64,000 bases of DNA, taken from the IMG/VR virus record IMGVR_UViG_3300045988_162215; one strand, 5' to 3'. A model generated the notes under the pieces. That model saw only the letters and a program-made list of their open reading frames with translations. It was not told the origin of the DNA and did not search any database. This stretch comes from a virus. Positions 8,680 to 57,988 of the stretch are shown piece after piece. Each line of letters starts with the position of its first letter. Within the stretch, counting starts at the first letter, position 1. The translations under genes were made by a program, and so were the position numbers.

Positions 8680-9196
8680 CTATAGATTCTCCTTCTTCAA
8701 AATTAAAAAATTTTATTTTCTTTTTTATTTTTGGAGGTTTTATAGTTATCTCTTTTGTTTTTTGTGTTATTGAAACAACATTTTTATCTTGATTTTGTTG
8801 TTTTGCTAAAAACAAACTATAATAATAATCATATGCATTTTGATATACATATGGCACAATACCTATTGAACCATTTGCTTTTTCTATTGAGTTTCCTTTA
8901 ACTTCAAAAAAATACACTAATGATTTTAATATACCGCTATAACTATATCCGTTTTCATTGACAAATTTATTGATATATTTATTTGTCATAGCCCAATTAC
9001 AAGAATCTCCATATACTTGTTTAATATAATCTTTTAATTTTGTAAGTTCAGGGTCTTCTTTTACCGCTAAAGGTTCTAAATTAGTATTATTTGGATCGCA
9101 AGTCTGATGAGCATATCTTCTCGCACCTACTCTAACAGCTTGTACTTTATCGCGGTCAAATGACTGTCCGCATATAATACATTTTACTTTATGCAC
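8669..9196 (-). CDS. hypothetical protein with N-terminal zinc finger (GTG start)
   Basis: CIICGQ...AHQTC. Conserved promoter plus RBS upstream. Confidence 0.4.
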   Translation of the reverse strand: MHKVKCIICGQSFDRDKVQAVRVGARRYAHQTCDPNNTNLEPLAVKEDPELTKLKDYIKQVYGDSCNWAMTNKYINKFVNENGYSYSGILKSLVYFFEVKGNSIEKANGSIGIVPYVYQNAYDYYYSLFLAKQQNQDKNVVSITQKTKEITIKPPKIKKKIKFFNFEEGESIDGK

Positions 9197-9230
9197 TTAA
9201 CAACCCTCAATTCTTCTTTAATATAATTAT

Positions 9231-9259
9231 ATTATATCATATTTTTTATTAGAAATCAA
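9231..9259 (-). promoter_or_regulatory. promoter TTGATT-N17-TGATATAAT
   Basis: Consensus family member upstream of 8669..9196. Confidence 0.55.
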
Positions 9260-9286
9260 AAAAGAGTTGCCATATAGGCAACTCTT
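9250..9286 (-). terminator. intrinsic terminator
   Basis: AAGAGTTGCC-ATAT-AGGCAACTCTT plus TTTTTTGATTT on the minus strand. Confidence 0.55.
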
Positions 9287-9297
9287 AATTATTTATG

Positions 9298-10239
9298 TTA
9301 TTTATTAGCTTCAACGAGTTTTTTAAGGTCTAAAACAATTAAACTCAAAGCTTCTGCCTGATCTCTTGTTGCTTTAGCTACAGTTTTCCCTTTACCAAGA
9401 TATTTTTCAACAATCTGGCTAATGCGCGGAGCCCAGAAGCTTCTAAATTTCTGACCATCATCTGTTTCTCCACTTTGGTCTGAAGAACCTGGAATATTAG
9501 CGACAATACTATTAAACTCTGAATATAATTTATCAAAGTCTAAATCTGCGGAAGCTTGGTTAATATTTACTCTAACATCTGTAAAATATTCTTCACCATC
9601 TTCTTCCATCTGCTTATCAATAGCTTCTCCAATAGCATTAACTAAGTTCTGATAACTTAAATCAATGTAATCTGGAGTGTATTTAAAACGAGACCCAGCT
9701 TCATATCTTGAAGTACCTCTCATAAACATAACAACTTTTTCAGACGAGCCATCTTGGGTTGGTACTGAACGAGTATAGCCTATGATATCGCACATTCTAG
9801 CAATAACATTATTTGCACGCTTATCAAGAGTAGGTACAATCTTATTATACTGCTGTCCGCCTTCATTTGTAAAAGTCTTATCAGTTTCATGTGAAATGAC
9901 AACTAAACCATAATCTAACTGAACAATTTTTCTTAGACATTCATCAAATTCTTTTTCGATCATGCCATAACCTTTACCAAAAGGAATGTCTGATACGGTA
10001 TCTGCATCATTATTACTGCATACATACTTTGAGCAGTAATCATAAGCAATATCAGCAGTATCAATAATTATAGTTTCGAATCTTTTCTTCGCATCATCTG
10101 TATTTAACTGCGTTAAAACTTGGCGGAATTCACTCCAATTATTTATTGGCTGAGCCATTGCGCCAGGGATGGCAGAGTAACCTTTCTCAAAGGCTAGCAA
10201 AAGGTGACCAGGGAATTTGACTGCGGTAGTGGTTTTACC
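9298..10239 (-). CDS. AAA_24/Sak4-like recombination ATPase, exon 2
   Basis: Begins in-frame GKTTTAVKFPGHLL with no start codon of its own (the tracked ORF used TTG at 10200). Contains IIIDTADIA....VVISHETD, typical of AAA_24. Confidence 0.55.
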   Translation of the reverse strand, partial: GKTTTAVKFPGHLLLAFEKGYSAIPGAMAQPINNWSEFRQVLTQLNTDDAKKRFETIIIDTADIAYDYCSKYVCSNNDADTVSDIPFGKGYGMIEKEFDECLRKIVQLDYGLVVISHETDKTFTNEGGQQYNKIVPTLDKRANNVIARMCDIIGYTRSVPTQDGSSEKVVMFMRGTSRYEAGSRFKYTPDYIDLSYQNLVNAIGEAIDKQMEEDGEEYFTDVRVNINQASADLDFDKLYSEFNSIVANIPGSSDQSGETDDGQKFRSFWAPRISQIVEKYLGKGKTVAKATRDQAEALSLIVLDLKKLVEANK

Positions 10240-11288
10240 CAGATATGTTATCGCAAAGGCTTTTTATCCTTTGCTTCTTATGGTTTCCCATAAGTTCAGC
10301 GTACCCTCTTATCTCTACTTAAAGAGATATTAGACTCTCTTGGATTTATTATATTCTAAAAATTTGTTATGTTTTCTTTCTAAGTAAATGCTATCTAATG
10401 AATAAAGTTTTTCAAACAAAGGTACTGAATAAATTGTACTAATAGAAAATTCCCATAAACCTCTATTATCTTGGTTTAAACTACTAGGTACATTTAGAAA
10501 ATTTTTTATATCTTCTAATAATTCAGACCTATGCGCACATAATCTAAATCTACAATAATCTTTATCAATAGAAATAGTGCCATCACCATCAAAAAAACCT
10601 AAAATAAAAGCATATGTTAAGTTTTTATCTTCAAATAATGGTAAATGCATTTCTTTATAAGTTTTTCTATTTACAATACCAAATTTACTTAAAGCTTCTT
10701 TTTGCGGTCCGCTACTCCAGTTTAAACGAACAACAGAAAAACCGTTACCAGTTTCTCTTTCTATAATAGGATTTTCTATTTCAAGTTCTTTTTTTATTTT
10801 TTCTAGAATCTCTTTATCAACTGCGGATAATTCTATATTGATCCTATTCCTATCTTTTTCAACCCAACCATCTGCTGCAATAAAACCTAAAATCCAAGCT
10901 TGTGTGGGCGTTTTTATATCATTAAAATATGTATGATTAACACTTTTTGCTCTAGCAGCATTTGAAATTTGATTCTGTTGAGCTTTTGTTCTTATTTGAA
11001 CATTATTAGATTCTAATATTTTTTTGACTCTATATGGAGTAATATTAAAAATTCTTGACAGTTGAGCCATAGAAGCTCCATTTGTATATTGTAAAATTAA
11101 TTCGTTGATGTCCATATCTGTAAACATACTCCTTAACAATTTTTAGTTTCAAAATCCACGCGTTGCGCGTGTTGCTTATTTTACTAAACAACTTCCGCTA
11201 GGATTGGCATGAGATATATAATCTTTTAGCTTTCCCTCTTTTAGTCTAATGTTTGCTTTATAGTTACCTATAAAGAGACCAGTTATTT
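10240..11288 (-). mobile_element. group I intron (inferred) carrying a LAGLIDADG homing endonuclease gene, inserted in Walker A codons of the ATPase gene
   Basis: P1-like pairing of exon AGACU with intron GGUCU including a U.G wobble at the splice site. P2-like hairpin CTTTATAG-GTAA-CTATAAAG. The intron ends ...AUAUCUG before exon 2 GGUAAAACC. Splicing restores the P-loop YGGWKT|GKTTTA. Confidence 0.55.
10330..11139 (-). CDS. LAGLIDADG homing endonuclease (double-motif), intron-encoded
   Basis: Two LAGLIDADG motifs: LGFIAADGWV and LGFFDGDGTI. Confidence 0.8.
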   Translation of the reverse strand: MLRSMFTDMDINELILQYTNGASMAQLSRIFNITPYRVKKILESNNVQIRTKAQQNQISNAARAKSVNHTYFNDIKTPTQAWILGFIAADGWVEKDRNRINIELSAVDKEILEKIKKELEIENPIIERETGNGFSVVRLNWSSGPQKEALSKFGIVNRKTYKEMHLPLFEDKNLTYAFILGFFDGDGTISIDKDYCRFRLCAHRSELLEDIKNFLNVPSSLNQDNRGLWEFSISTIYSVPLFEKLYSLDSIYLERKHNKFLEYNKSKRV

Positions 11289-11375
11289 AGTCTTCCAACC
11301 ACCATACAAAAACACAGAATAGCCTCTCATATCTCTACTTACCTGATGTGGTTTAATATCCATAATATTTAACAT
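11289..11375 (-). CDS. AAA_24/Sak4-like recombination ATPase, exon 1 (29 codons, ends inside Walker A)
   Basis: RBS AAAGGAG, then ATG, then MLNIMDIKPHQVSRDMRGYSVFLYGGWKT. Stop codons follow immediately. The last exon nucleotide is U and pairs with an intron guide sequence (AGACU/GGUCU). Confidence 0.5.
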
Positions 11376-11519
11376 TTTATTTTCTCCTTTTATTAAAACC
11401 AAAATTCCGTTTCAAAAAGTTCTAAAGTGATTTTTGTTTTGCAAATATGGCTGTTTGCGCTCCAAGAATAGATTTAAACCTCCAATAATGGAGGTTTAAT
11501 CTTTATCTTTTATATTTAA

Positions 11520-12473
11520 TTAGAAGTTAAATCCACCTGCTGCGGCTGGCGCAGATGCAACTGCAAATCCATTAGCTGGAGCAGCATTCTTTGAAGCAAG
11601 ATACTCATCATTTCTCTTTTTAACTTCTGCCAAATGTACTTCTCTATCAGCCTGAGCTTTCTTCATTTCATCTGCTGTAATTCCATTATCTGGATCTCCA
11701 AGAACATACTCAACAGGCTTAGCACCTGTAATCTGCCATTCTCTTACATTTCTCTCTTCTCTCTCTACAGAAACTCCGCCAAAAGCATTCTCTTTCTGAA
11801 CTTCTCTTGTAAGAGTAGCATTTACAATATTTCCCCAAACACCAGTAAACAAAGGATTTTCTTTTGAAATATTCTTACTCAAGAAATACTTAATACCATT
11901 TTCATCCTTACAAACGAAATCAACTGGTAAAAGCGCACCTTTAAAGTTGAATACATATCCGCTTATCTGAAGATATGGCTTCTCAATGCCCTTCTCAGGA
12001 TTAGCTTCAATATCCTTTACCTTATTAATGTACATATCAACATCAAAGTAATTTCTCTTATCTGGCTCAAACTTAGAAAGAGTTGTAATAAAACCGCCCT
12101 CATTTCTCTTTGCAGCTACATAAGTTTCATTACCATCGCGGTTTGAAATAAAATCATTAACATCAAGTGAAGTATCACACTTAACGATAGTTGCATTCTC
12201 TTTTCCATCACTAAGAACAGTCTTACCGTTTTCAATAATGTTCTTTAATACGCCAAAACTAGCGTTCTTATTGCCCTTTGAAGTAAGCTCTTTTACAAAT
12301 GTATAATGTACTGTAATAACATTTGTACAATCTTCATCAGTTGCAATATCAATCGTTCCTGAAATATAAGGCTTACCAAAATTATCAGATTCTTTGTTCT
12401 GAACTGTCTTAATAGCTAACTTATGCTCATAAATATAACCTTTAATAATTTCTTGATTCTTTACTTTTCTCAT
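11520..12473 (-). CDS. hypothetical protein (possibly ssDNA-binding; Gly/Ala-rich C-terminus)
   Basis: No defining motif. Sits between the recombination ATPase and the nucleotide-metabolism genes. GC-rich 3' end. Confidence 0.35.
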   Translation of the reverse strand: MRKVKNQEIIKGYIYEHKLAIKTVQNKESDNFGKPYISGTIDIATDEDCTNVITVHYTFVKELTSKGNKNASFGVLKNIIENGKTVLSDGKENATIVKCDTSLDVNDFISNRDGNETYVAAKRNEGGFITTLSKFEPDKRNYFDVDMYINKVKDIEANPEKGIEKPYLQISGYVFNFKGALLPVDFVCKDENGIKYFLSKNISKENPLFTGVWGNIVNATLTREVQKENAFGGVSVEREERNVREWQITGAKPVEYVLGDPDNGITADEMKKAQADREVHLAEVKKRNDEYLASKNAAPANGFAVASAPAAAGGFNF

Positions 12474-36664: not shown

Positions 36665-36677
36665 ATTTTTGACTAGC

Positions 36678-36747
36678 AGCCCCCACGGGACTCGGACCCG
36701 CGATGTCGCAGTCAAAGTGCGATGTGTTACCAACTACACCAAGGGGC
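36678..36747 (-). tRNA. tRNA-Gln (anticodon TTG)
   Basis: Cloverleaf: D stem GTGT/ACAC. Anticodon stem TCGCA/TGCGA with loop CTTTGAC. T arm GCGGG-TCCGAGT-CCCGT. Confidence 0.6.
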
Positions 36748-36756
36748 ATCAAAATA

Positions 36757-51436: not shown

Positions 51437-51510
51437 TTGAGGAGGAGAGACTCGGACTCTCGGTCTTTCGCGTATCAGACGAATGCTTTAACCATCTAAG
51501 CTACTCCTCA
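51437..51510 (-). tRNA. tRNA-Ile (anticodon GAT)
   Basis: Acceptor TGAGGAG/CTCCTCA. Anticodon stem TTCGT/GCGAA with loop CTGATAC. T arm GAGAG-TCCGAGT-CTCTC. Confidence 0.55.
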
Positions 51511-51511
51511 G

Positions 51512-51573
51512 CGCTGCACACAGGATTCGAACCTGCAAAGCCTTTCAGCTCCCTCACCACCCGGACATACAGC
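51512..51573 (-). pseudogene. degenerate tRNA-like element (62 nt; intact T arm and acceptor, defective D and anticodon arms)
   Basis: T arm GCAGG-TTCGAAT-CCTGT and acceptor GCTGTAT/GTGCAGC. Anticodon region GGAGC-TGAAAG-GCTTT has a 6-nt loop. Confidence 0.4.
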
Positions 51574-52356
51574 ATACATTTTAGAATTAAAAATTTTATT
51601 TTAATTTCCTTACTTAACGCCTAGACATTGTTAAGGGGTCTGCGTTGCCGCACCATCTTCCTTTATTTCCTCATTCCATAAAAATAAAATTTTAATTCTT
51701 CAACTCGGTACTTTTCATCTCAACTTCTAATTTGCCTAGATAGTAACCGATAATTCTTATTAAGACCTGAGATAGTCGATCAAATATTTTAATCTAAAAC
51801 CGGCAATAGTTAAAAGATTAAGTCCGTTATAGTTACGAACCCACAACTCGAAATTTCATTTCCTACCTCTTATTAGCGTGGGTGGGCGTCGCCGCACATA
51901 AAGTTATGTTTAATGGAAACTTTATGTTATAAACCATATAATATGGAACTGCATTGGGTGTAAGTTATCCTACTTTAGACTCTTACTCGACTCAAGGTCA
52001 ACGCCATTCTTCATGGATGCTTTTGCAGCGGCTCTCGTCGCTATATTCCATATACTACACTTATTTTTAGCAGTAGTCGCATAGCTTTCTTTTATAGTCT
52101 GTTTGGCTGCCGACTTTCTATCGCGTTTTTGTTCGCATCACCCTGGGTACTGATAGACATTTCGCGCTCCCATTGAACCAGCTTTGAATTTAAGACCTAC
52201 ACTGTGTGGCGAGATCTATGGTCTTTAGTTTATTCAACTAATGAGCGTTATGCACTCTGCTCTCGCTTTTCAGTCTTATTTATATCTAACGGGCTTCCTG
52301 CACCTAACAGGATAATTAAGTAGGAGATCTTTTAGACTAACACCCGTTAGAAATAA

Positions 52357-52439
52357 CGCCAGCACTAGGATTCGAACCTAGATATCCAGATGGATAGAAA
52401 ACTTAGCAAGTTTCTGCGATGCCCTTACGCCATACTGGC
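52357..52439 (-). tRNA. tRNA-Ser (anticodon GCT), type II with long variable arm
   Basis: Acceptor GCCAGTA/TGCTGGC. Anticodon loop TTGCTAA. Variable hairpin ATCCA-TCT-GGAT. T arm CTAGG-TTCGAAT-CCTAG. Confidence 0.7.
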
Positions 52440-52443
52440 AAGA

Positions 52444-52516
52444 AGCCCGTAACGGGAATCGAACCCGTATCAACTGCTTGGAAGGCAGCTATGCTAGCCG
52501 TTACACCACACGGACA
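52444..52516 (-). tRNA. tRNA-Gly (anticodon TCC)
   Basis: Acceptor GTCCGTG/TACGGGC. Anticodon stem GCTGC/GCAGT with loop CTTCCAA. T arm ACGGG-TTCGATT-CCCGT. Confidence 0.65.
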
Positions 52517-52520
52517 TAAA

Positions 52521-52566
52521 TCTGGGCAGTAGGATTCGAACCTACAACGTCTTGCGTGCCTTAGCA
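52521..52566 (-). pseudogene. orphan tRNA 3' fragment (T arm GTAGG-TTCGAAT-CCTAC plus acceptor 3' strand TGCCCAG-A) immediately downstream of ORF 52568..53002
   Basis: No complementary CTGGGCA 5' strand or D/anticodon arms found upstream. Confidence 0.45.
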
Positions 52567-52567
52567 A

Positions 52568-53002
52568 TCATAATGTAGATAGAATATCTTCGGCTTTAAA
52601 ATCTTTAGCCTGCTTTTGTGTAGAAAGTCTTGTGCCAACAGTCCAAAATTTTGTCTCATAAGTTCCAAATACAGGGAACATATAAAACTTTCCATTGAAC
52701 TCTGTCATAAAATAGTCCACATCTTCAGTAGAGTAAGTTACTTTTTTTGTTTTTCCATTGTCACGCACTTCATATTTAGTACGAACAAGGAAGCCTGTTT
52801 CATCTACTGGCATAGCGTGTTTTACTTGTATCTTGTAAAACTTTCCGTTTTTTTCAATTACTAAGTCATACTTTTGATGATTTCCGATTGGAATAAGAAC
52901 ATTCCAGCCTTGTTCAATCAAATATACCTGACATTTTAATTCTGTAATATCTCCAATTTGAGATGGATTAAGGTTTTCCAATACTATCAATCCTTTCTCC
53001 AA
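52568..53002 (-). CDS. PD-(D/E)xK-like nuclease-fold protein inserted in tRNA array (paralog of 54716..55129), candidate homing endonuclease
   Basis: Shared QIG.I.E...L.EQGW.V..PI.....YDLV.EK.GKFY..Q.K with the paralog. D...EK.GK resembles a PD-(D/E)xK core. Confidence 0.4.
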   Translation of the reverse strand: MEKGLIVLENLNPSQIGDITELKCQVYLIEQGWNVLIPIGNHQKYDLVIEKNGKFYKIQVKHAMPVDETGFLVRTKYEVRDNGKTKKVTYSTEDVDYFMTEFNGKFYMFPVFGTYETKFWTVGTRLSTQKQAKDFKAEDILSTL

Positions 53003-53068
53003 AGATATTCTTTATGAATTTCCAAGACAAGCAAGCGTTTATCCTAGCTGAGTTAAACCAGCTAAAAA

Positions 53069-53142
53069 TGGACATGGGGAGAATCGAACTCCAAACACCC
53101 TTGTGGGTTCTCCACGGTGACGGCATCCAGCACTACATGCCC
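53069..53142 (-). ncRNA. tRNA-like gene with non-canonical anticodon loop (identity unresolved)
   Basis: Acceptor GGGCATG/CATGTCC, D stem GTG/CAC, T arm GGAG-TTCGATT-CTCC. Anticodon region GTGG-AGAAC-CCAC gives a 5-nt loop. Confidence 0.35.
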
Positions 53143-53146
53143 ATAA

Positions 53147-53219
53147 TGTGCCTAGAGGGGCTCGAACCCTCGACTCTCAAATTAAAAGTTTGATACTCTG
53201 CCAGCTGAGTTATAGGCAC
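53147..53219 (-). tRNA. tRNA-Lys (anticodon TTT)
   Basis: Acceptor GTGCCTA/TAGGCAC. Anticodon stem TCAAA/TTTGA with loop CTTTTAA. T arm GAGGG-TTCGAGC-CCCTC. Confidence 0.7.
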
Positions 53220-53443
53220 TTAATTTGGCATTGGATAGCTTATCTTCCCCGGCTATCAACGGCGAGTTATTTATAGTCTACTCTTAGACTAAGTGATGCC
53301 AACTCACTTTTCTTATAGACACATAAGCGTGATTTCAGTACCGACTTCCATCTGAAATTCATACTCTTTCTGCTACGCACCGCTATTGCGTTAACACAGA
53401 TACCCTTTGTTTAATTAGCGATTTTATTCTCGTCGGAGTTTAA

Positions 53444-53515
53444 TTCTTCAGGTTAGATTTGAACTAACAGCTTTGGTTCTGTAAACCAATGTTTTATCCA
53501 TTAAACTACTGAAAA
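53444..53515 (-). tRNA. tRNA with anticodon ACA (Cys-decoding position; unusual A34)
   Basis: D stem GTTT/AAAC. Anticodon stem TTGGT/ACCAA with loop TTACAGA. T arm GTTAG-TTCAAAT-CTAAC. AT-rich acceptor TTTTCAG/CTGAAGA. Confidence 0.45.
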
Positions 53516-53815
53516 TTATTTACAATATTTATCTATAAATGAATCACAACCAAGATCGCAACAAAGCTTATCTAATTCTTTTGTTGGCATTGACTGAAAT
53601 TCATCTTTAATTACATAAACATCCCAACAACAGCTTTCCAAAAGTTCTTCGTCACTAATATCATCAAAACAATCATATGATTCAGTAACCTCTAGAGCCA
53701 TGTCAAGTCCAATTTCATCTGCTTCTGCTAATGTACTAACATCATAAACAGCTAATGTGTTAATACCATGCATTCCACCGTATGTACTTTCATAAGCATA
53801 AATAAAAACCTTCAT
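53516..53815 (-). CDS. acidic Cys-rich hypothetical protein
   Basis: ORF with promoter cassette 53849-53877 upstream. Confidence 0.35.
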   Translation of the reverse strand: MKVFIYAYESTYGGMHGINTLAVYDVSTLAEADEIGLDMALEVTESYDCFDDISDEELLESCCWDVYVIKDEFQSMPTKELDKLCCDLGCDSFIDKYCK

Positions 53816-53848
53816 ATAATTATCAGCCCTTTCTTTAACTTTCTATAA

Positions 53849-53877
53849 TAATTATATCAAAAATTTTATTATTTTTC
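53849..53877 (-). promoter_or_regulatory. promoter TTGAAA-N17-TGATATAAT plus RBS cassette
   Basis: Upstream of 53516..53815 and the downstream tRNA. Confidence 0.55.
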
Positions 53878-53879
53878 AA

Positions 53880-53950
53880 ATATGTGCATTAGGATTCGAA
53901 CCTAAACAAAAAGCTCCAAATGCTTTCGTGCTACCATTACACCATACACA
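53880..53950 (-). tRNA. tRNA-Gln (anticodon TTG), second copy
   Basis: Acceptor ATGTGTA/TGCACAT, D stem GTG/CAC. Anticodon stem AAAGC/GCTTT with loop ATTTGGA. T arm TTAGG-TTCGAAT-CCTAA. Confidence 0.55.
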
Positions 53951-54082
53951 TCTTCAATTATTATATAATTGAATAAATTTAATTTAACGCGCGTTCTGTA
54001 TATTAGGTCATTACATTAAAGCAGTTCTATGGTTGAACTTTTACCAGAATGGGATTCCAAACCCTCGACTTTCTTGTAATGA

Positions 54083-54153
54083 AGCATGAAGTTGGAGTCG
54101 AACCAACCTATGAGGTTTTGCAGACCTCCTCCTAGCCGCCCGGACCTCCATGC
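54083..54153 (-). tRNA. tRNA-Cys (anticodon GCA)
   Basis: Acceptor GCATGGA/TTCATGC. Anticodon stem GAGGT/ACCTC with loop CTGCAAA. T arm GTTGG-TTCGACT-CCAAC. Confidence 0.65.
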
Positions 54154-54231
54154 AAAATATAAACTAGACACTAATATTTAATAATTGATTTGTCTTTTAA
54201 TTCTTTAATATTATAGCTGTATGTATCTAAA

Positions 54232-54303
54232 TACTCCCGACAGGATTTGAACCTGCATAGCGTGCCTTAGAAGGACACTGCCTATCCATTAGGCTACGGA
54301 AGC
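54232..54303 (-). tRNA. tRNA-Arg (anticodon TCT)
   Basis: Acceptor GCTTCCG/CGGGAGT, D arm GCC-TAATGGATA-GGC. Anticodon stem GTGTC/GGCAC with loop CTTCTAA. T arm GCAGG-TTCAAAT-CCTGT. Confidence 0.65.
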
Positions 54304-54307
54304 AAAA

Positions 54308-54380
54308 TACGGGTGGTGAGATTCGAACCCACACTTGACGAGGCTTAAACTCGTTGTCTCTGCCGTTGGACTACACCCGC
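54308..54380 (-). tRNA. tRNA-Leu (anticodon TAA) with atypically short variable region
   Basis: Acceptor GCGGGTG/CACCCGT. Anticodon stem ACGAG/CTCGT with loop TTTAAGC. T arm GTGGG-TTCGAAT-CTCAC. Variable region only 5 nt. Confidence 0.5.
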
Positions 54381-54668
54381 TTATCAGGCTAGCTGCAGTG
54401 GTATCGAGGAATTGCACCCCGGTTTCCTCTTTATAAGGAAGGCGACTTATCTAGTTAGTCGAATACCCTAGCCTATAAAAATGGCAGTCCACTCTTCTGC
54501 CGATTTAATGAGTTTCTTGCTTCTCCTGCGCAAGGCTTAATTAAATGCTTTATTCTAGGTGTTGTCGCGACACGTCACTAGAAAGAGTGTTATAATAAAA
54601 CTAAGCACATAAAATTTTTAGATTTACAATCCAAACCATCTTCTTTAAAATTGCTGTTTGTGCTTAAA

Positions 54669-54743
54669 TGGGCGGAGAGGGAATCGAACCCACTCGGGAC
54701 ATAAAGCCTTCGGTTTTATTCCTCGTCCGAGATTTGAACTCGG
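54669..54743 (-). pseudogene. two tandem tRNA 3' fragments (T arm plus acceptor 3' strands) at the 3' end of ORF 54716..55129
   Basis: CCGAG-TTCAAAT-CTCGG-ACGAGGA (overlaps the ORF's last codons) and GTGGG-TTCGATT-CCCTC-TCCGCCC-A. Confidence 0.5.
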
Positions 54744-55129
54744 TATTTATATGTTTGAAACCCTTGATTATTTGCATTTGGCTCTGTTCTTAATCTTATA
54801 GATTTTCGATTTTGCTGAATATCTTTTATTGGTATTAGCCACATATTCAAATCTTTGTTTACACAAAATAAATAATCAAGCTCAGAATGGTTTAAAAGAT
54901 TATCATAAACACCGCCATTTGTACCTCCAGTGGAACGAAAATCAATATCTCCATTTTCAGTTTGAGTAGCCTTACATTGGACAGTATAAAATTTTCCATC
55001 TTTTTCAACCACTAAATCATACCACTGAGTGTCATTTATTGGAAGAGATATTGTATATCCTTGACAAGTGAAATAATTTATTGCCATACTTAAACCAATT
55101 CTTCCAATTTGTTTTCTGTTAGTTTTCAA
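54716..55129 (-). CDS. PD-(D/E)xK-like nuclease-fold protein (TTG start) inserted between halves of a tRNA-like gene
   Basis: Paralog of 52568..53002. RBS AAAGGAG. Flanked by complementary acceptor strands GGGCGGG (upstream) and TCCGCCC-A (downstream). Confidence 0.45.
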   Translation of the reverse strand: MKTNRKQIGRIGLSMAINYFTCQGYTISLPINDTQWYDLVVEKDGKFYTVQCKATQTENGDIDFRSTGGTNGGVYDNLLNHSELDYLFCVNKDLNMWLIPIKDIQQNRKSIRLRTEPNANNQGFQTYKYRVQISDEE

Positions 55130-55149
55130 AATTATATAAAAACTCCTTT

Positions 55150-55191
55150 CGAGACCAGACCGATGTGTCTACCTTATCACGCTACCCGCCC
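55150..55191 (-). other. tRNA 5' half (acceptor GGGCGGG, D-like arm, start of anticodon region) transcribed from promoter 55214-55242
   Basis: GGGCGGGTAGCGTGATAAGGTAGACACATCGG.... Its acceptor strand is complementary to the 3' fragment at 54669-54676, about 480 nt downstream. Confidence 0.45.
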
Positions 55192-55213
55192 TTAATTTTT
55201 ACTTTCTATAAAT

Positions 55214-55242
55214 ATTATATCAAAAATATTTATGAAAATCAA
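55214..55242 (-). promoter_or_regulatory. promoter TTGATT-N17-TGATATAAT
   Basis: Drives the tRNA 5' half plus PD-(D/E)xK ORF transcript. Confidence 0.55.
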
Positions 55243-55244
55243 TT

Positions 55245-55284
55245 TGATATTTAAAGCGGCAACCGGTTTGAGATCTCAAACCGG
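55245..55284 (-). terminator. palindromic hairpin (possible terminator) between tRNA-Met and promoter 55214-55242
   Basis: CCGGTTTGAGATCTCAAACCGG perfect palindrome flanked by GC-rich arms. Moderately U-rich tail. Confidence 0.35.
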
Positions 55285-55383
55285 GCAACCGCGTTGCAAA
55301 GAAAGGTTTTATATGAACCAAGTTTTTTAACAGAACTTGGAAAACTGGGAAAGGAAGGAAGGTCAATCATGAATCTGACCTAA

Positions 55384-55454
55384 TGGCGGAAGCAGGACTC
55401 GAACCTGCGTCTCTAGCCTATGAAGCTAGCAAGGAGCCACTCCTCTATTCCGCG
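55384..55454 (-). tRNA. tRNA-Met/Ile2 (anticodon CAT; C1xC72 mismatch suggests possible initiator type)
   Basis: Acceptor CGCGGAA/TTCCGCC. Anticodon stem CTAGC/GCTAG with loop TTCATAG. T arm GCAGG-TTCGAGT-CCTGC. Confidence 0.6.
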
Positions 55455-56115
55455 ATATTATCATTTACTAATTTAATATTCTCAATAAAAACAAAATAAA
55501 ATAGTTCTTCAACTTACTAAACATATCTTCAAAATTATTACTCTACATAGGAGATAAAGGCTGAGCAAGGCTAGCTAATTCCTTACTTCTTTACCCCAGC
55601 ATAATTGCCATGTCTATGACAGGATTGATTACCTATACCTTTCACTTAAACCATTCAGCATATATAATTTTATAAAAAATTCTTCATTCTTTAATCTTTT
55701 AATGAAATTAAATATCTGCACTTTGCATTAAGCTACTTAGAGTTGCATACAGTTCTTATATCAACATTTCTGTTGTTTCATTGCAAAACGGATTATTGGT
55801 ATTTCCTAGGATTGACTTTGAGTACCACCTCGCCGCCCTAACTAGGAGAGGAAAGCATTTCTGCTAACTTTCTATTGCTCCGCCGAACCGCGTCCTGAGC
55901 TATTTTGCGATATATCTAGTGCCATGACTTTACTTTGGGTTTCCAACCTCTTCATTTCAGTATCACTACTTTCAATGCGGACCACTATCCACAAGTATCC
56001 TTGTTTCGTTCGTGCCGAGCTCTTTTCGCCATGCCTTAGCTGTGTGGTTAGCACATCTACACTAAGATATTCATTTTGTTTTTATTCAGAATATTAAATT
56101 TTCAATGAACATAAA

Positions 56116-56188
56116 TGCTGCCCCTAGGAGTCGAACCCAGTGTCATCGGATATAAGCCGATTCCCCAAAACCGTCGAGGACAAGCAGC
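56116..56188 (-). tRNA. tRNA-Ile (anticodon TAT, AUA-decoding)
   Basis: Acceptor GCTGCTT/GGGCAGC. Anticodon stem ATCGG/CCGAT with loop CTTATAT. T arm CTGGG-TTCGACT-CCTAG. Confidence 0.5.
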
Positions 56189-56579
56189 TAGTTGCATTAC
56201 TGCTCCATTACGCGCACCTGTCTACGCAACTTCCGCACTACGCCTGGACACTTGATATTCTTAGGATTTTCTTCAAGTGTTGCCAATCTATTCTTTAAAA
56301 TTGCTAATTTCTGTTCTCTTGTCATAATATCCAATCCCTTTCTATTGTTATATAATAGATCCAATCCTGCTGGTTATTAGCAAGTAAACATCGTTCACAA
56401 ACCAGCTGGATCTATACCACATTTTAGACAGTAGCCGCCTGTACGCTTCACCACTCACGTACCTAGGAGAATTTCTGCATTTTGCTTTCAATCTAACAAA
56501 ACAACTCTAAAACTAAAACAACTTTACTTACTGTTTAAGTTGAATCAGAGGCTAATTTGATTAACTTGCATATAAGTAG

Positions 56580-56655
56580 TGATCCCGGCGGGACTTGAAC
56601 CCAAGCGCATCTCGACCTTGAAAGGGTCGAATCCTAGCCTTTAGAAGACGGGACC
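56580..56655 (-). tRNA. tRNA-Glu (anticodon TTC)
   Basis: Acceptor GGTCCCG/CGGGATC, D stem TTCT/AGGA. Anticodon stem CGACC/GGTCG with loop CTTTCAA. T loop TTCAAGT. Confidence 0.55.
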
Positions 56656-56658
56656 AGA

Positions 56659-56731
56659 TGACTCCAGATAGATTTGAACTATCATCCCCTGACTGAGAAT
56701 CAGGAATCCTGAACCATTAGACGATGGAGCC
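56659..56731 (-). tRNA. tRNA-Glu (anticodon CTC)
   Basis: Acceptor GGCTCCA/TGGAGTC. Anticodon stem CCTGA/TCAGG with loop TTCTCAG. T arm GATAG-TTCAAAT-CTATC. Confidence 0.55.
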
Positions 56732-56857
56732 TTGAATTAGGAATTTTGGCAAGATTCCTTTAACTTGGAGCCCTTATCATCCTCGAACCCTAGGAGGTTT
56801 TGTTACTTTTTATTAACGAGAGTTAGAACAAATTTTCCTTTCGCAGTTTCTCTCAAA

Positions 56858-56930
56858 TGGATTGTATTGGTGTCGAACCAATTCCTCTTGGGCTTCAACC
56901 AAGCGCTTCTACCGAGTTAGCTTACAATCC
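56858..56930 (-). tRNA. tRNA-Phe (anticodon GAA)
   Basis: Perfect acceptor GGATTGT/ACAATCC. Anticodon stem CTTGG/CCAAG with loop TTGAAGC. T arm ATTGG-TTCGACA-CCAAT. Confidence 0.7.
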
Positions 56931-56979
56931 TTTCTAAAGTGACTAAAGTCGCCTTCCATAATTACATCTCCTTTTCATT

Positions 56980-57008
56980 TACTATAATAATTATATCAAA
57001 AATTTTTA
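56980..57008 (-). promoter_or_regulatory. promoter TTGATT-N17-TGATATAAT plus RBS cassette
   Basis: Upstream of tRNA-Phe, tRNA-Glu and further tRNAs. Confidence 0.55.
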
Positions 57009-57186
57009 TGAAAATCAATTAAATTGCTTTTTGTCTATGTATTCAAGAAGCATAACTTGGATACATAAGGTGAGCTAGTACGTCAACTCCACACATCTCA
57101 ATCTAACGGCATATCTTAGACATCTTTATTCATCATTTCGTATGATAGGAGTGAGGGAAAGCTATACTCGACAATCTCTCCTATAA

Positions 57187-57260
57187 CGTCTTGATATTTA
57201 TCCCCTCAAGCGGGTGAGGCGACATCGAAAGATTCGAACTTTCAACCTTCCTTCCATACG
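57187..57260 (-). pseudogene. degenerate tRNA-like element (canonical T arm GAAAG-TTCGAAT-CTTTC, acceptor pairs, no anticodon arm)
   Basis: CGGCATT...GATGTCG acceptor with wobble pairs. The central region cannot form a 5-bp stem and 7-nt loop. Confidence 0.3.
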
Positions 57261-57413
57261 GACGGTTATGCTTCCTTTTACACCAATGCCGCAAATGTAC
57301 TTATTGCAGTAAGTACACCGAGTTATTTTGGCTTTTTCGTATAATATACTGCAATATATCATTGACTAATATCAACCAAACAAGTCCTTCGACTAGTACT
57401 CCGCACGCAGACC

Positions 57414-57485
57414 TTAATTCGGTCCGGAGGGAATCGAACCCTCATAATCTTCTCTTATAACTCTACCAAACTCCTCGTCGTTGGC
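57414..57485 (-). pseudogene. degenerate tRNA-like element (T arm GAGGG-TTCGATT-CCCTC, acceptor TGGTCTG/CGGACCG, no foldable anticodon arm)
   Basis: As described. The anticodon region TAGAG-TTATAAG-AGAAG does not pair. Confidence 0.3.
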
Positions 57486-57619
57486 AGACCACACTTGCTT
57501 TACACCAGAGGTTTAGTGATGCCCCTCTATCATCAATGGCTAACTTTGTTTTTTACACCGGAAGGTTCCGCCGCACCCACCATCAACACTCATTAACAGC
57601 GAAGTTCACCTAGAGTAAA

Positions 57620-57692
57620 CTCCCACAACAGGGCTCGAACCTGTGACCCACGGTTTAACAGACCGTTGCTCTACCAACTGAGCTATATGGGA
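57620..57692 (-). tRNA. tRNA-Asn (anticodon GTT)
   Basis: Canonical D arm GCTC-AGTTGGTA-GAGC. Anticodon stem ACGGT/ACCGT with loop CTGTTAA. T arm ACAGG-TTCGAGC-CCTGT. Acceptor TCCCATA/TGTGGGA. Confidence 0.75.
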
Positions 57693-57916
57693 ATATTAAA
57701 GAGAGCAACCACGAAGGGATAGTCTAGGAAGATTTCACGCTCTCACGCGATAATTATTTCTCAGATTTTTTATATTGCGATCACTGAGAAATGAACAAAT
57801 TATCAACGATTTTTTCTCGCCCACTAAAAAGACCGCGATTTATTACTACAACTTATTGTCGCTTTTGCCCAGATAGGTTAGTAAGTTGCAACTACGTACG
57901 CCCTATCAAACGTTAA

Positions 57917-57988
57917 TTCCGATTATGTGAATCGAACACATATTACCGGGTTACAAAGCCGGGGTTCTAGCCTTTGAACTAAATCGGA
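57917..57988 (-). tRNA. tRNA-Thr (anticodon TGT)
   Basis: Perfect acceptor TCCGATT/AATCGGA, D arm GTTC-AAAGGCTA-GAAC. Anticodon stem CCGGC/CCCGG with loop TTTGTAA. T arm ATGTG-TTCGATT-CACAT. Confidence 0.65.

Follow-up and report, generated by a model that had tools for sequence, protein, structure and literature searches.

The interrupted ATPase gene and its insert

We analyzed a 64,000-nucleotide (nt) stretch of viral DNA (IMG/VR record IMGVR_UViG_3300045988_162215; hereafter the window), in which the gene for a Sak4-like ATPase of the AAA_24 family lies on the minus strand in two parts, exon 1 (11375-11289, 29 codons) and exon 2 (10239-9298, 313 codons), with 1,049 nt between them. Our analysis indicates that this insert, at 11288-10240, is very probably a mobile group I intron of IA-like architecture, which sits between the ...K-T and the G-K-T of the Walker A motif. 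An earlier, sequence-only reading of the region had proposed such an intron, carrying a LAGLIDADG homing endonuclease. The features of the locus are as follows (ORF, open reading frame; aa, amino acids).

11289..11375, minus strand: exon 1 of the Sak4-like / AAA_24 ATPase gene, 29 codons, MLNIM...YGGWKT
9298..10239, minus strand: exon 2 of the ATPase gene, 313 codons plus stop; the first codons GGU AAA ACC encode GKT of Walker A
10240..11288, minus strand: predicted group I intron, 1,049 nt, IA-like, P1-P2-P3-P4-P5-P6/P6a-P7-P7.1(ORF)-P3'-P8-P7'-P9-P9.1, omega-G at 10240
10330..11127, minus strand: ORF of the predicted LAGLIDADG homing endonuclease, 261-265 aa, stop codon TAA at 10332-10330
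11474..11499, minus strand: terminator-like hairpin after the upstream gene (consensus scan only)
9286-9262, minus strand: terminator-like hairpin after the ATPase gene (consensus scan only)

Exon 1 starts with ATG at 11375, 8 nt behind the ribosome-binding site GGAG (11387-11384), and its product is MLNIMDIKPHQVSRDMRGYSVFLYGGWKT. The sequence-only reading had described a 29-codon ORF with a strong ribosome-binding site that stops at 11289; the length and the binding site hold, and the stop has to be moved, as the frame runs on for one codon, AAA, and is closed by TAA at 11285-11283, both within the insert. In every copy of the insert that we compared (see below), the exon-1 frame stops 2-9 codons past the 5' splice site. 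An early stop after the 5' splice site is usual in phage introns such as T4 td and keeps ribosomes out of the core. On the other side of the insert, the minus-strand ORF at 10200-9298 begins with TTG and has no P-loop, and reading upstream in its frame gives ...AITYLGKTTTAVKF, which includes ...LGKTTTAVKF and offers no start codon, exactly as had been reported.

Joining 11289 to 10239 restored a 342-aa protein in which the Walker A motif GGWKT/GKT spans the junction (slash). The predicted ligated exons read ...UGGAAGACU/GGUAAAACC... at the nucleotide level and ...GGWKTGKTTTAVK... at the peptide level. The joined protein matched Pfam AAA_24 (PF13479) with an E value of 3.8e-41 and 141.5 bits (cut-off 27) over profile positions 2-195 of 195, and PHROG 124, 'Sak4-like ssDNA annealing protein', with an E value of 1.2e-52; besides the complete Walker A motif, it carries IIIDT as Walker B. 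Its identity to Enterococcus phage proteins with a Sak4-like annotation is 47-49%, and the joined protein aligned without a gap across the junction with the product of the uninterrupted Sak4-like gene of Enterococcus phage VRE9_4 (49% identity; FLYGGWKT/GKTTTAVKFP against MFYGEPKS-GKTTTATRFP). The proposed splitting of Walker A is thus upheld by a full-length family match and by intact homologues. Both exons are open in every copy that could be read through. From these matches, the joined exons would encode an AAA_24 / Sak4-like ATPase, with single-stranded DNA (ssDNA) annealing as its predicted activity.

The gene order in the window is PHROG 2367, the Sak4-like gene, PHROG 4680 and a DnaB-like helicase gene, with thymidylate synthase nearby, and Enterococcus phages have the same order. 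The ATPase gene, which is bracketed by the two terminator-like hairpins, is part of a conserved replication and recombination module. Without the intron call, an annotation would display a truncated ATPase lacking a P-loop, an orphan 29-codon ORF and a stray endonuclease; these three apparent pieces are very probably one intact recombination gene plus an intron.

The endonuclease ORF, flanked within the insert by about 240 nt of non-coding sequence, has the ribosome-binding site AAGGAG at 11134-11129, and its start is likely ATG 11127 or the conserved ATG 11115 rather than TTG 11139. A promoter scan inside the intron gave nothing convincing. The ORF matched LAGLIDADG_3 (E value 1.4e-14, in two stretches) and LAGLIDADG_1 (3.7e-5), both above the Pfam cut-offs, as well as PHROG 4645 'endonuclease' (7.9e-38). 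In agreement with the double-motif enzyme that had been proposed, two motifs are present, WILGFIAADGW and FILGFFDGDGT, each with its acidic residue (AADG, DGDG). The N-terminus has a weak helix-turn-helix match, and the comparison with solved structures returned marginal LAGLIDADG hits only. The ORF is intact, and DNA cleavage by its product is predicted.

Fold of the insert and its comparative support

The insert is exactly 1,049 nt long (11288-10240), the length given before. It begins with AAAUAACUGGUCU and ends with G10240, and every copy read to its 3' end likewise ends in G. The elements of the putative ribozyme, all on the minus strand, are listed below.

11293-11289 with 11280-11276: P1, exon strand AGACU with intron strand GGUCU; U11289.G11280 is the wobble pair at the 5' splice site
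11276..11283: internal guide sequence ACU-GGUCU, of which GGUCU (11280-11276) pairs with exon 1
11283-11281 with 10239-10237: P10, ACU with the exon-2 start GGU, only 3 bp, covaries
11256..11275: P2 hairpin, CUUUAUAG-GUAA-CUAUAAAG, compensatory changes in three pairs
11243..11249: P3 5' strand UUAGACU; its partner AGUCUAA (10336-10330) lies about 900 nt away across the ORF
11167..11237: P4-P6 domain, containing P4, P5, P6 and P6a
11237-11234 with 11203-11200: P4, AGGG with UCCU, recovered by RNAalifold
11224-11221 with 11215-11212: P5, AGAU with AUCU, varies among copies
11198-11196 with 11169-11167: P6, GCG with CGC, recovered by RNAalifold
11192-11185 with 11178-11171: P6a, GUUGUUUA with UAAGCAAC, 100% paired, 4 compensatory pairs
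11166-11162: J6/7, GCAAC, directly before the P7 5' strand
11157..11161: P7 5' strand GCGUG, partner UACGC (10303-10299); pseudoknot with P3; expected guanosine-binding helix
11152..11156: P7.1 5' strand GAUUU, partner AAAUC (10347-10343); closes the loop of the endonuclease ORF
10253..10336: 3' half of the core, with P3', P8, J8/7, P7', P9 and P9.1
10336-10330: P3', AGUCUAA
10328-10323 with 10316-10311: P8, AUCUCU/AGAGAU
within 10253..10336: J8/7, AAGAGGG
10303-10299: P7', UACGC
10294-10277: P9, CUUAUGG-GAAA-CCAUAAG
10274-10268 with 10259-10253: P9.1, GCAAAGG/CCUUUGC

The core elements occur in the order P3-P4-P5-P6-P7-(P7.1)-P3'-P8-P7'-P9, with P3 and P7 forming a pseudoknot. The P7.1 helix lies between the P7 5' strand and the P3 3' strand, where the terminase intron of Streptococcus thermophilus phage CHPC1042 (below) has an insertion of about 95 nt. 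An extra helix between P7 and P3' is a hallmark of group I subgroup IA (PMC3984707), and we describe the predicted architecture as IA-like. The end of the endonuclease ORF, about six codons, coincides with the 3' strands of P7.1 and P3. Both strands are read through in the window and its relative L020, where the TAA stop lies inside AGUCUAA; in the other subfamily, the stop comes just before this block.

We found 12 further copies of the insert in related contigs, all in the same gene and all with a LAGLIDADG ORF; seven came from metagenomes, and five (L020, L021, L033, L034 and L035) were used with the window for structure analysis. Four of these are inserted at the window's site, and L020 is inserted 8 nt upstream. 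The six copies were aligned with MAFFT after removal of the ORF loop, which leaves an intron of 258 nt (282 nt in the construct that includes 24 exon nt). For a formal count, we used 54 pairs from P1, P2, P3, P6a, P7, P7.1, P8, P9.1 and P10, with the helices defined on the window sequence. In this count, 95.0% of the cells were paired, compared with 35-48% when the 3' partners were slid by 1-3 columns, and 25 of the 54 pairs had changed on both sides, compared with 1-5 in the slid controls. The covariation score was 0.440; none of 500 shuffles matched it, and none matched the percentage paired or the numbers of pairs or cells changed on both sides. The strands of three of the helices were as follows.

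P1: window AGACU:GGUCU; L020 GGGU:GCCC (shifted site); L021 and L033/L034 AGAGU:GCUCU
P3: window UUAGACU:AGUCUAA; L020 UCAUACU:AGUAUGA; L021 UUGCAGA:UCUGCAA; L033/L034 UCGCAGA:UCUGCGA
P7: window GCGUG:UACGC; L020, L021 and L033/L034 GCAUA:UAUGC

P3, P6a, P7 and P7.1 were 100% paired in the six copies, and P8 was 86% paired. P3 kept 7/7 pairs in all six, with compensatory changes in five of the seven, and P7 kept 5/5. P1 was kept in the five same-site copies, and its switch from C-G to G-C tracks the exon; in P10, too, the guide changes together with the opening bases of exon 2 (ACU:GGU, UCU:GGA, ACC:GGU). A 5-bp P1 helix alone is at chance level; therefore, it is the comparative data that establish the reality of the observation. 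The P1 with its wobble pair, the P2-like hairpin and the terminal G of the sequence-only reading all held up in this comparison. Absence of a P3-P7 core had been named as evidence against an intron, and P3, P4, P6/P6a, P7, P7.1, P8 and P9.1 are kept in the six copies. The maintenance of helices by compensatory changes implies selection for folding.

RNAalifold, run blind on the same alignment, recovered P1, P2, P3, P4, P6, P6a, P8 and P9.1; the P7 pseudoknot is beyond what it can draw. In place of P7.1, it chose a local hairpin that is broken (A.A) in 2/6 copies, and we favor the long-range P7.1 because it shows U-A to A-U covariation. P4 also covaries by eye (AGGG:UCCU, CAGA:UCUG, CGGA:UCCG). 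The ORF-deleted window RNA had a folding energy of -71.5 kcal/mol (z = -5.95; none of 200 shuffles was as stable), and its single-sequence fold displayed P1, P2, P4, P5, P6a, P7.1, P8, P9 and P9.1. A hand-written pattern for the 3' hairpin missed even the known copy and was given no weight.

The window alone offers an alternative at 11157-11171, where the P6 3' strand, J6/7 and the P7 5' strand can together fold into a palindromic hairpin, CACGCG-CAA-CGCGUG. The single-sequence fold chose this local CGCG-CAA-CGCG hairpin in place of P6 and P7; we rejected it as a replacement, as it is unconserved in the other copies. It may be a competing misfold or meaningless.

Kinship to a recognized group I intron came from phages of S. 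thermophilus. When the region was compared with phage records by megablast, only 10246-10326 matched, in 61 S. thermophilus phages at 84-87% identity. In CHPC1042 (MH937494), the match (about 80 nt, 86% identity) lies at the 3' end of the roughly 290-nt gap that separates two coding sequences (CDSs), both annotated as 'terminase large subunit', and the gap matched the Rfam group I intron model RF00028 with 51 bits (gathering score 50; E value 5.4e-12). The common segment comprises the P8 3' strand, J8/7, the P7 3' strand, a P9 capped by GAAA, the terminal hairpin and, ahead of the 3' splice site, GAUAAC. J8/7 is in register in the two introns, and the P7 of the window is in register with GACUA:UAGUC of CHPC1042. 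A BLAST search with the ORF-deleted intron against phage records matched this 3' module only. With a covariance model built from ten 5' halves, which found a single copy within the window, the best hit in the CHPC1042 locus was the 5' end of the intron with the splice site in register (21.1 bits), a weak link with a rough E value of about 1e-3. These similarities show homology between the insert and a validated group I intron.

In CHPC1042 (L001, 1172-1494) and about 60 other S. thermophilus phage records, this RF00028-positive, ORF-less intron is unannotated between the two terminase CDSs, and the literature on S. thermophilus phages that we found mentions only lysin-gene introns. In a more sensitive search, a 3' module of about 60 nt (P9 hairpin with GAAA loop, a hairpin with an AUAAAAA loop, and GAUAAC) recurred in many Firmicute phages, including those of Staphylococcus, Clostridium, Enterococcus and Arcanobacterium, mostly at unannotated positions. 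Examples are Arcanobacterium phage TPWB06 (22349-22407), Staphylococcus phage 6ec (22661-22725), Clostridium phage phiCP39-O (5765-5823) and Clostridioides phage pCD1602_4 (89433-89490); in a few records, the module lies inside a gene annotated as continuous, such as 'tapemeasure' in phage 6ec. This recurrence suggests further unannotated introns of the same lineage.

Empty sites, divergent flanks and neighboring introns

A scan of viral contigs yielded 29 related loci, 27 of which cover the P-loop. The P-loop is uninterrupted in 23/27 and interrupted in 4/27; the distribution of inserts is sporadic. The closest relative, L003 on a 140-kb contig, has an uninterrupted allele whose protein is 96% identical to that of the window (87.8% in nucleotides), and its sequence ...GGTTGGAAAACAGGAAAGACA... 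is continuous through the insertion point. Upstream of the gene, the window and L003 agree at 98% over 325 nt. Over 27 positions around the junction of the window's joined exons, the empty site of another relative, L009 (GGTGGTTGGAAAACTGGTAAAACCACT), differs at one position and that of L003 (GGAGGTTGGAAAACAGGAAAGACAACA) at about eight. Both empty sites are candidate targets of the endonuclease.

With the intron removed, we compared the window and L003 over the gene and 3 kb on each side. At the insertion point, the divergence of the exons jumps from about 2% to about 20%. Against a background of 0-4 differences per 60 nt, the final 60 nt of exon 1 had seven differences, all within about 22 nt of the insertion site, and the first 360 nt of exon 2 had 17, 9, 19, 11, 9 and 13 differences per 60 nt; the background was regained by about 600-650 nt. 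Expressed as identity to L003, the first 420 nt of exon 2 reached 80.5% and the remainder 96.5%. Because the proteins are 96% identical, most of these differences are synonymous. The tract is defined as follows.

9640..10239 and 11310-11289, minus strand: exon tract of raised divergence against L003 (differences per 60 nt), putatively co-converted

Co-conversion of flanking exon sequence accompanies homing as a general mechanism (PMC3984707, PMC3943268). A divergence tract that starts at the insertion site is what co-conversion during homing from a diverged donor would leave.

The intron family appears at more than one position in this gene. In L020 (about 1864-2998, on the contig that also bears L032 and L041) and in L043, a homologous intron with its endonuclease lies 8 nt upstream, in the Trp codon of GGG T/GG AAA ACA. 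The guide sequence of L020 is retargeted to UCU-GCCC, compared with ACU-GGUCU in the window, and with this guide both P1 (GGGU:GCCC) and P10 (UCU:GGA) are preserved. The window thus shares its insertion site with the more distant subfamily, and not with its closer homologue L020. In L022 (about 2005-2999) and L028, the P-loop is split 3 nt downstream, at YGEPKSG/KTT, by an unrelated group I intron that Rfam misses and whose ORF (264 aa) is of the HNH type. In L021, the second endonuclease motif (ORF at 2032-2856) reads FDGNG, with Asn in place of the catalytic Asp, and this enzyme may be inactive or a nickase.

The endonuclease of the window is 62% identical to that of L020 and 43% identical to that of L021, compared with 61-68% for the host gene. 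A recent horizontal transfer, which would leave the endonuclease more conserved than its host gene, was not indicated by these values. Since the identity of the endonuclease does not exceed that of the host gene, there is no sign of very recent spread among these distant lineages.

Among the relatives, three insertion points fall within 11 nt of P-loop codons. One tentative idea, to our judgment a rather unlikely one, is that introns compete for the P-loop codons of this family of phage ATPases and switch sites within them. Different introns at nearby sites in one gene also occur in SPO1 and Bastille. If the 8-nt move was a true one, by reverse splicing with a mutated guide or by drift of the endonuclease, it would be a natural and datable switch of intron site within one target. 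The system might then be used to test for mutual exclusion of neighboring introns or for a role of the endonuclease in competition between phages, as reported for PhiPA3 (PMC11620839). Homing and site switching are directly testable here, given the relative with an empty site, the sharp tract resembling co-conversion and the two neighboring insertion sites.

Elsewhere in the window, and unrelated to the intron, a ROOL RNA (RF03087, 274 bits, E value 1e-61) lies at 55483-56090 on the minus strand, within an array of about 15 tRNA genes. The tRNA genes of the window are at 51437-57988 and 36677-36748, both on the minus strand.

Proposed splicing and homing, and comparison with known systems

Overall, we propose a putative mechanism for the expression and spread of this element. 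The gene would be transcribed through the intron, and a ribosome on exon 1 would halt at the TAA formed by intron nt four to six. The RNA would fold so that the guide ACU-GGUCU aligns exon 1 through P1, with the U.G pair at U11289, and exon 2 through P10. An external guanosine bound in P7 would attack the 5' splice site, and G10240 would then take the place of this guanosine for exon ligation. The product would be an mRNA for the 342-aa ATPase with an intact GGWKTGKT P-loop. In a mixed infection, the LAGLIDADG enzyme encoded in the P7.1 loop is expected to cut intron-less alleles at the conserved P-loop codons, and repair from the intron-bearing copy would bring the intron and some flanking exon sequence into the cut genome. 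A regulatory role of the intron, which had also been suggested, is speculation.

Several of our results weigh against this proposal. The scan with RF00028 that the sequence-only reading had advised was negative: 9000-11700 was without a match at E<=1, the 5' half by itself matched only in a P5 fragment of 9 bits, the 3' half did not match, and the whole window yielded nothing at the gathering threshold of 50 bits. The formal Rfam score (RF00028 >= 50 bits) was thus not reached. The structural comparison spans only about five independent lineages, and kinship among them inflates the shuffle statistic, for which reason the slid controls are the safer reference; the count of further pair types was not clearly above that of the shuffles (45/500). 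In P7, just one pair is fully compensatory, the two subfamilies do not agree in P5 and P9, P6 fails in L021, and P4 was excluded from the formal count, being one column out of register in the MAFFT alignment. Finally, the donor of the divergent exon tract was absent among all the loci that we fetched, none of which was closer than L003. As no donor was found, both a direction of transfer and a connection of the tract to homing are presumed.

We consider the negative Rfam result a limit of the model rather than evidence against an intron. An Rfam scan of the insert-bearing loci L020, L021 and L022 gave no group I hit either, and L022 was missed despite its textbook group I P/Q/R/S elements (AAATTGCGGGGA, AATCCGCAGCC, GGTTCAACGACTAG and GAAGATATAGTCTG). 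The introns of the window, L020, L021 and L022 all carry an ORF of about 800 nt inside the core, to which we attribute the miss. In pattern scans of viral and metagenome contigs, we found no natural ORF-less copy that could be scored directly; a first pattern, CATGCCAATCCTAGCGGAAG, found nothing, and a second one returned the 12 copies, each with an ORF. The locus is therefore of value for methods, as a clear false negative of standard Rfam for an ORF-bearing group I intron whose full core is recovered by comparative analysis.

Among the other explanations, decay is the one that deserves most attention, and we regard it as improbable. The insert would then descend from a group I intron that has lost splicing or splices too poorly, which would leave the ATPase effectively a pseudogene. 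Splicing is a prediction, RF00028 does not score the insert, and the FDGNG motif of L021 indicates that decay occurs in this intron family. However, all helices of the window pair perfectly, both exons are open, the endonuclease ORF is intact with both catalytic Asp residues, the gene resides in a conserved replication and recombination module, and compensatory changes maintain the helices in a way that implies selection for folding. The negative Rfam scans would also fit a free-standing homing endonuclease or another cassette without a ribozyme that has split or killed the gene. We find this very improbable, as compensatory changes mark the long-range pairing of P3, P7 and P7.1 across the ORF, both boundaries keep the frame and bear U.G (5' side) and G (3' end), the guide pairs with both exons, and the 3' end shares homology with a validated group I intron.

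Hardly credible is the idea that the gene works as two separate polypeptides (29-30 aa N-terminal and 300-313 aa C-terminal) or that the insert is an intein and leaves at the protein level. Inteins commonly contain LAGLIDADG enzymes and are frequent in P-loops, a theme also of PMC2814812 and PMC10643990. Nevertheless, the TAA six bases into the insert and the ORF's own ribosome-binding site and start leave no continuous frame, and we rejected an intein for this closed frame. Exon 2 has no start codon or ribosome-binding site at GKT, and its first start, a TTG 13 codons downstream, would lose Walker A. A group II intron was likewise rejected, with no reverse transcriptase and no domain structure. 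We are highly confident that the insert is a group I intron and somewhat less so that it currently splices.

The closest known system is the terminase intron of the S. thermophilus Brussowvirus CHPC1042 (MH937494, about nt 1189-1494). Its 3' 80 nt or so are 86% identical to those of the window, P7 and P3 are in the same register, it has an extension between P7 and P3', and its P1 (GGGU/AAAC...GCCC) has the form found in L020. It differs from the window's intron in lacking an ORF (about 300 nt in total), in its host gene and phage family, and in passing RF00028; its 5' half has no BLAST similarity to the window and gave only the weak covariance-model hit.

It has long been established that homing group I introns occupy conserved DNA-metabolism genes of phages (PMC3984707, PMC2988022, PMC11878797). 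The insert resembles the classical examples, such as T4 td/I-TevI, nrdB and sunY, the DNA polymerase introns of SPO1 and Bastille, and the Bastillevirinae introns (PMC11878797; PMC3984707), which likewise reside in conserved DNA-metabolism genes. The window shares with them an endonuclease ORF in a peripheral loop, an early in-frame stop, a sporadic distribution, insertion in codons of a catalytic motif and flanking exon divergence consistent with co-conversion. In contrast to them, the host gene here encodes a Sak4-like AAA_24 ATPase, and the endonuclease is of the LAGLIDADG type. Phage introns most often carry GIY-YIG, HNH, PD-(D/E)xK or EDxHD enzymes (PMC3984707), and one LAGLIDADG case, in a Bastillevirinae DNA polymerase intron, is listed (PMC11878797). 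A literature search for group I introns with Sak4 returned no relevant paper, and the Bastillevirinae survey includes no such host gene.

The LAGLIDADG inteins in the P-loops of DnaB, RecA, terminase and MCM offer a second parallel, as they also target the most conserved codons of ATPases, with several elements at neighboring sites (PMC10643990, PMC2814812). Unlike these inteins, the insert of the window is out of frame and has its own translation signals, and its removal would have to take place at the RNA level. The element is thus a known kind of selfish element at a new location and involves no new mechanism. It adds the Sak4-like annealing ATPase to the phage DNA-metabolism genes colonized by homing introns, with LAGLIDADG as the less usual type of endonuclease for a phage intron.

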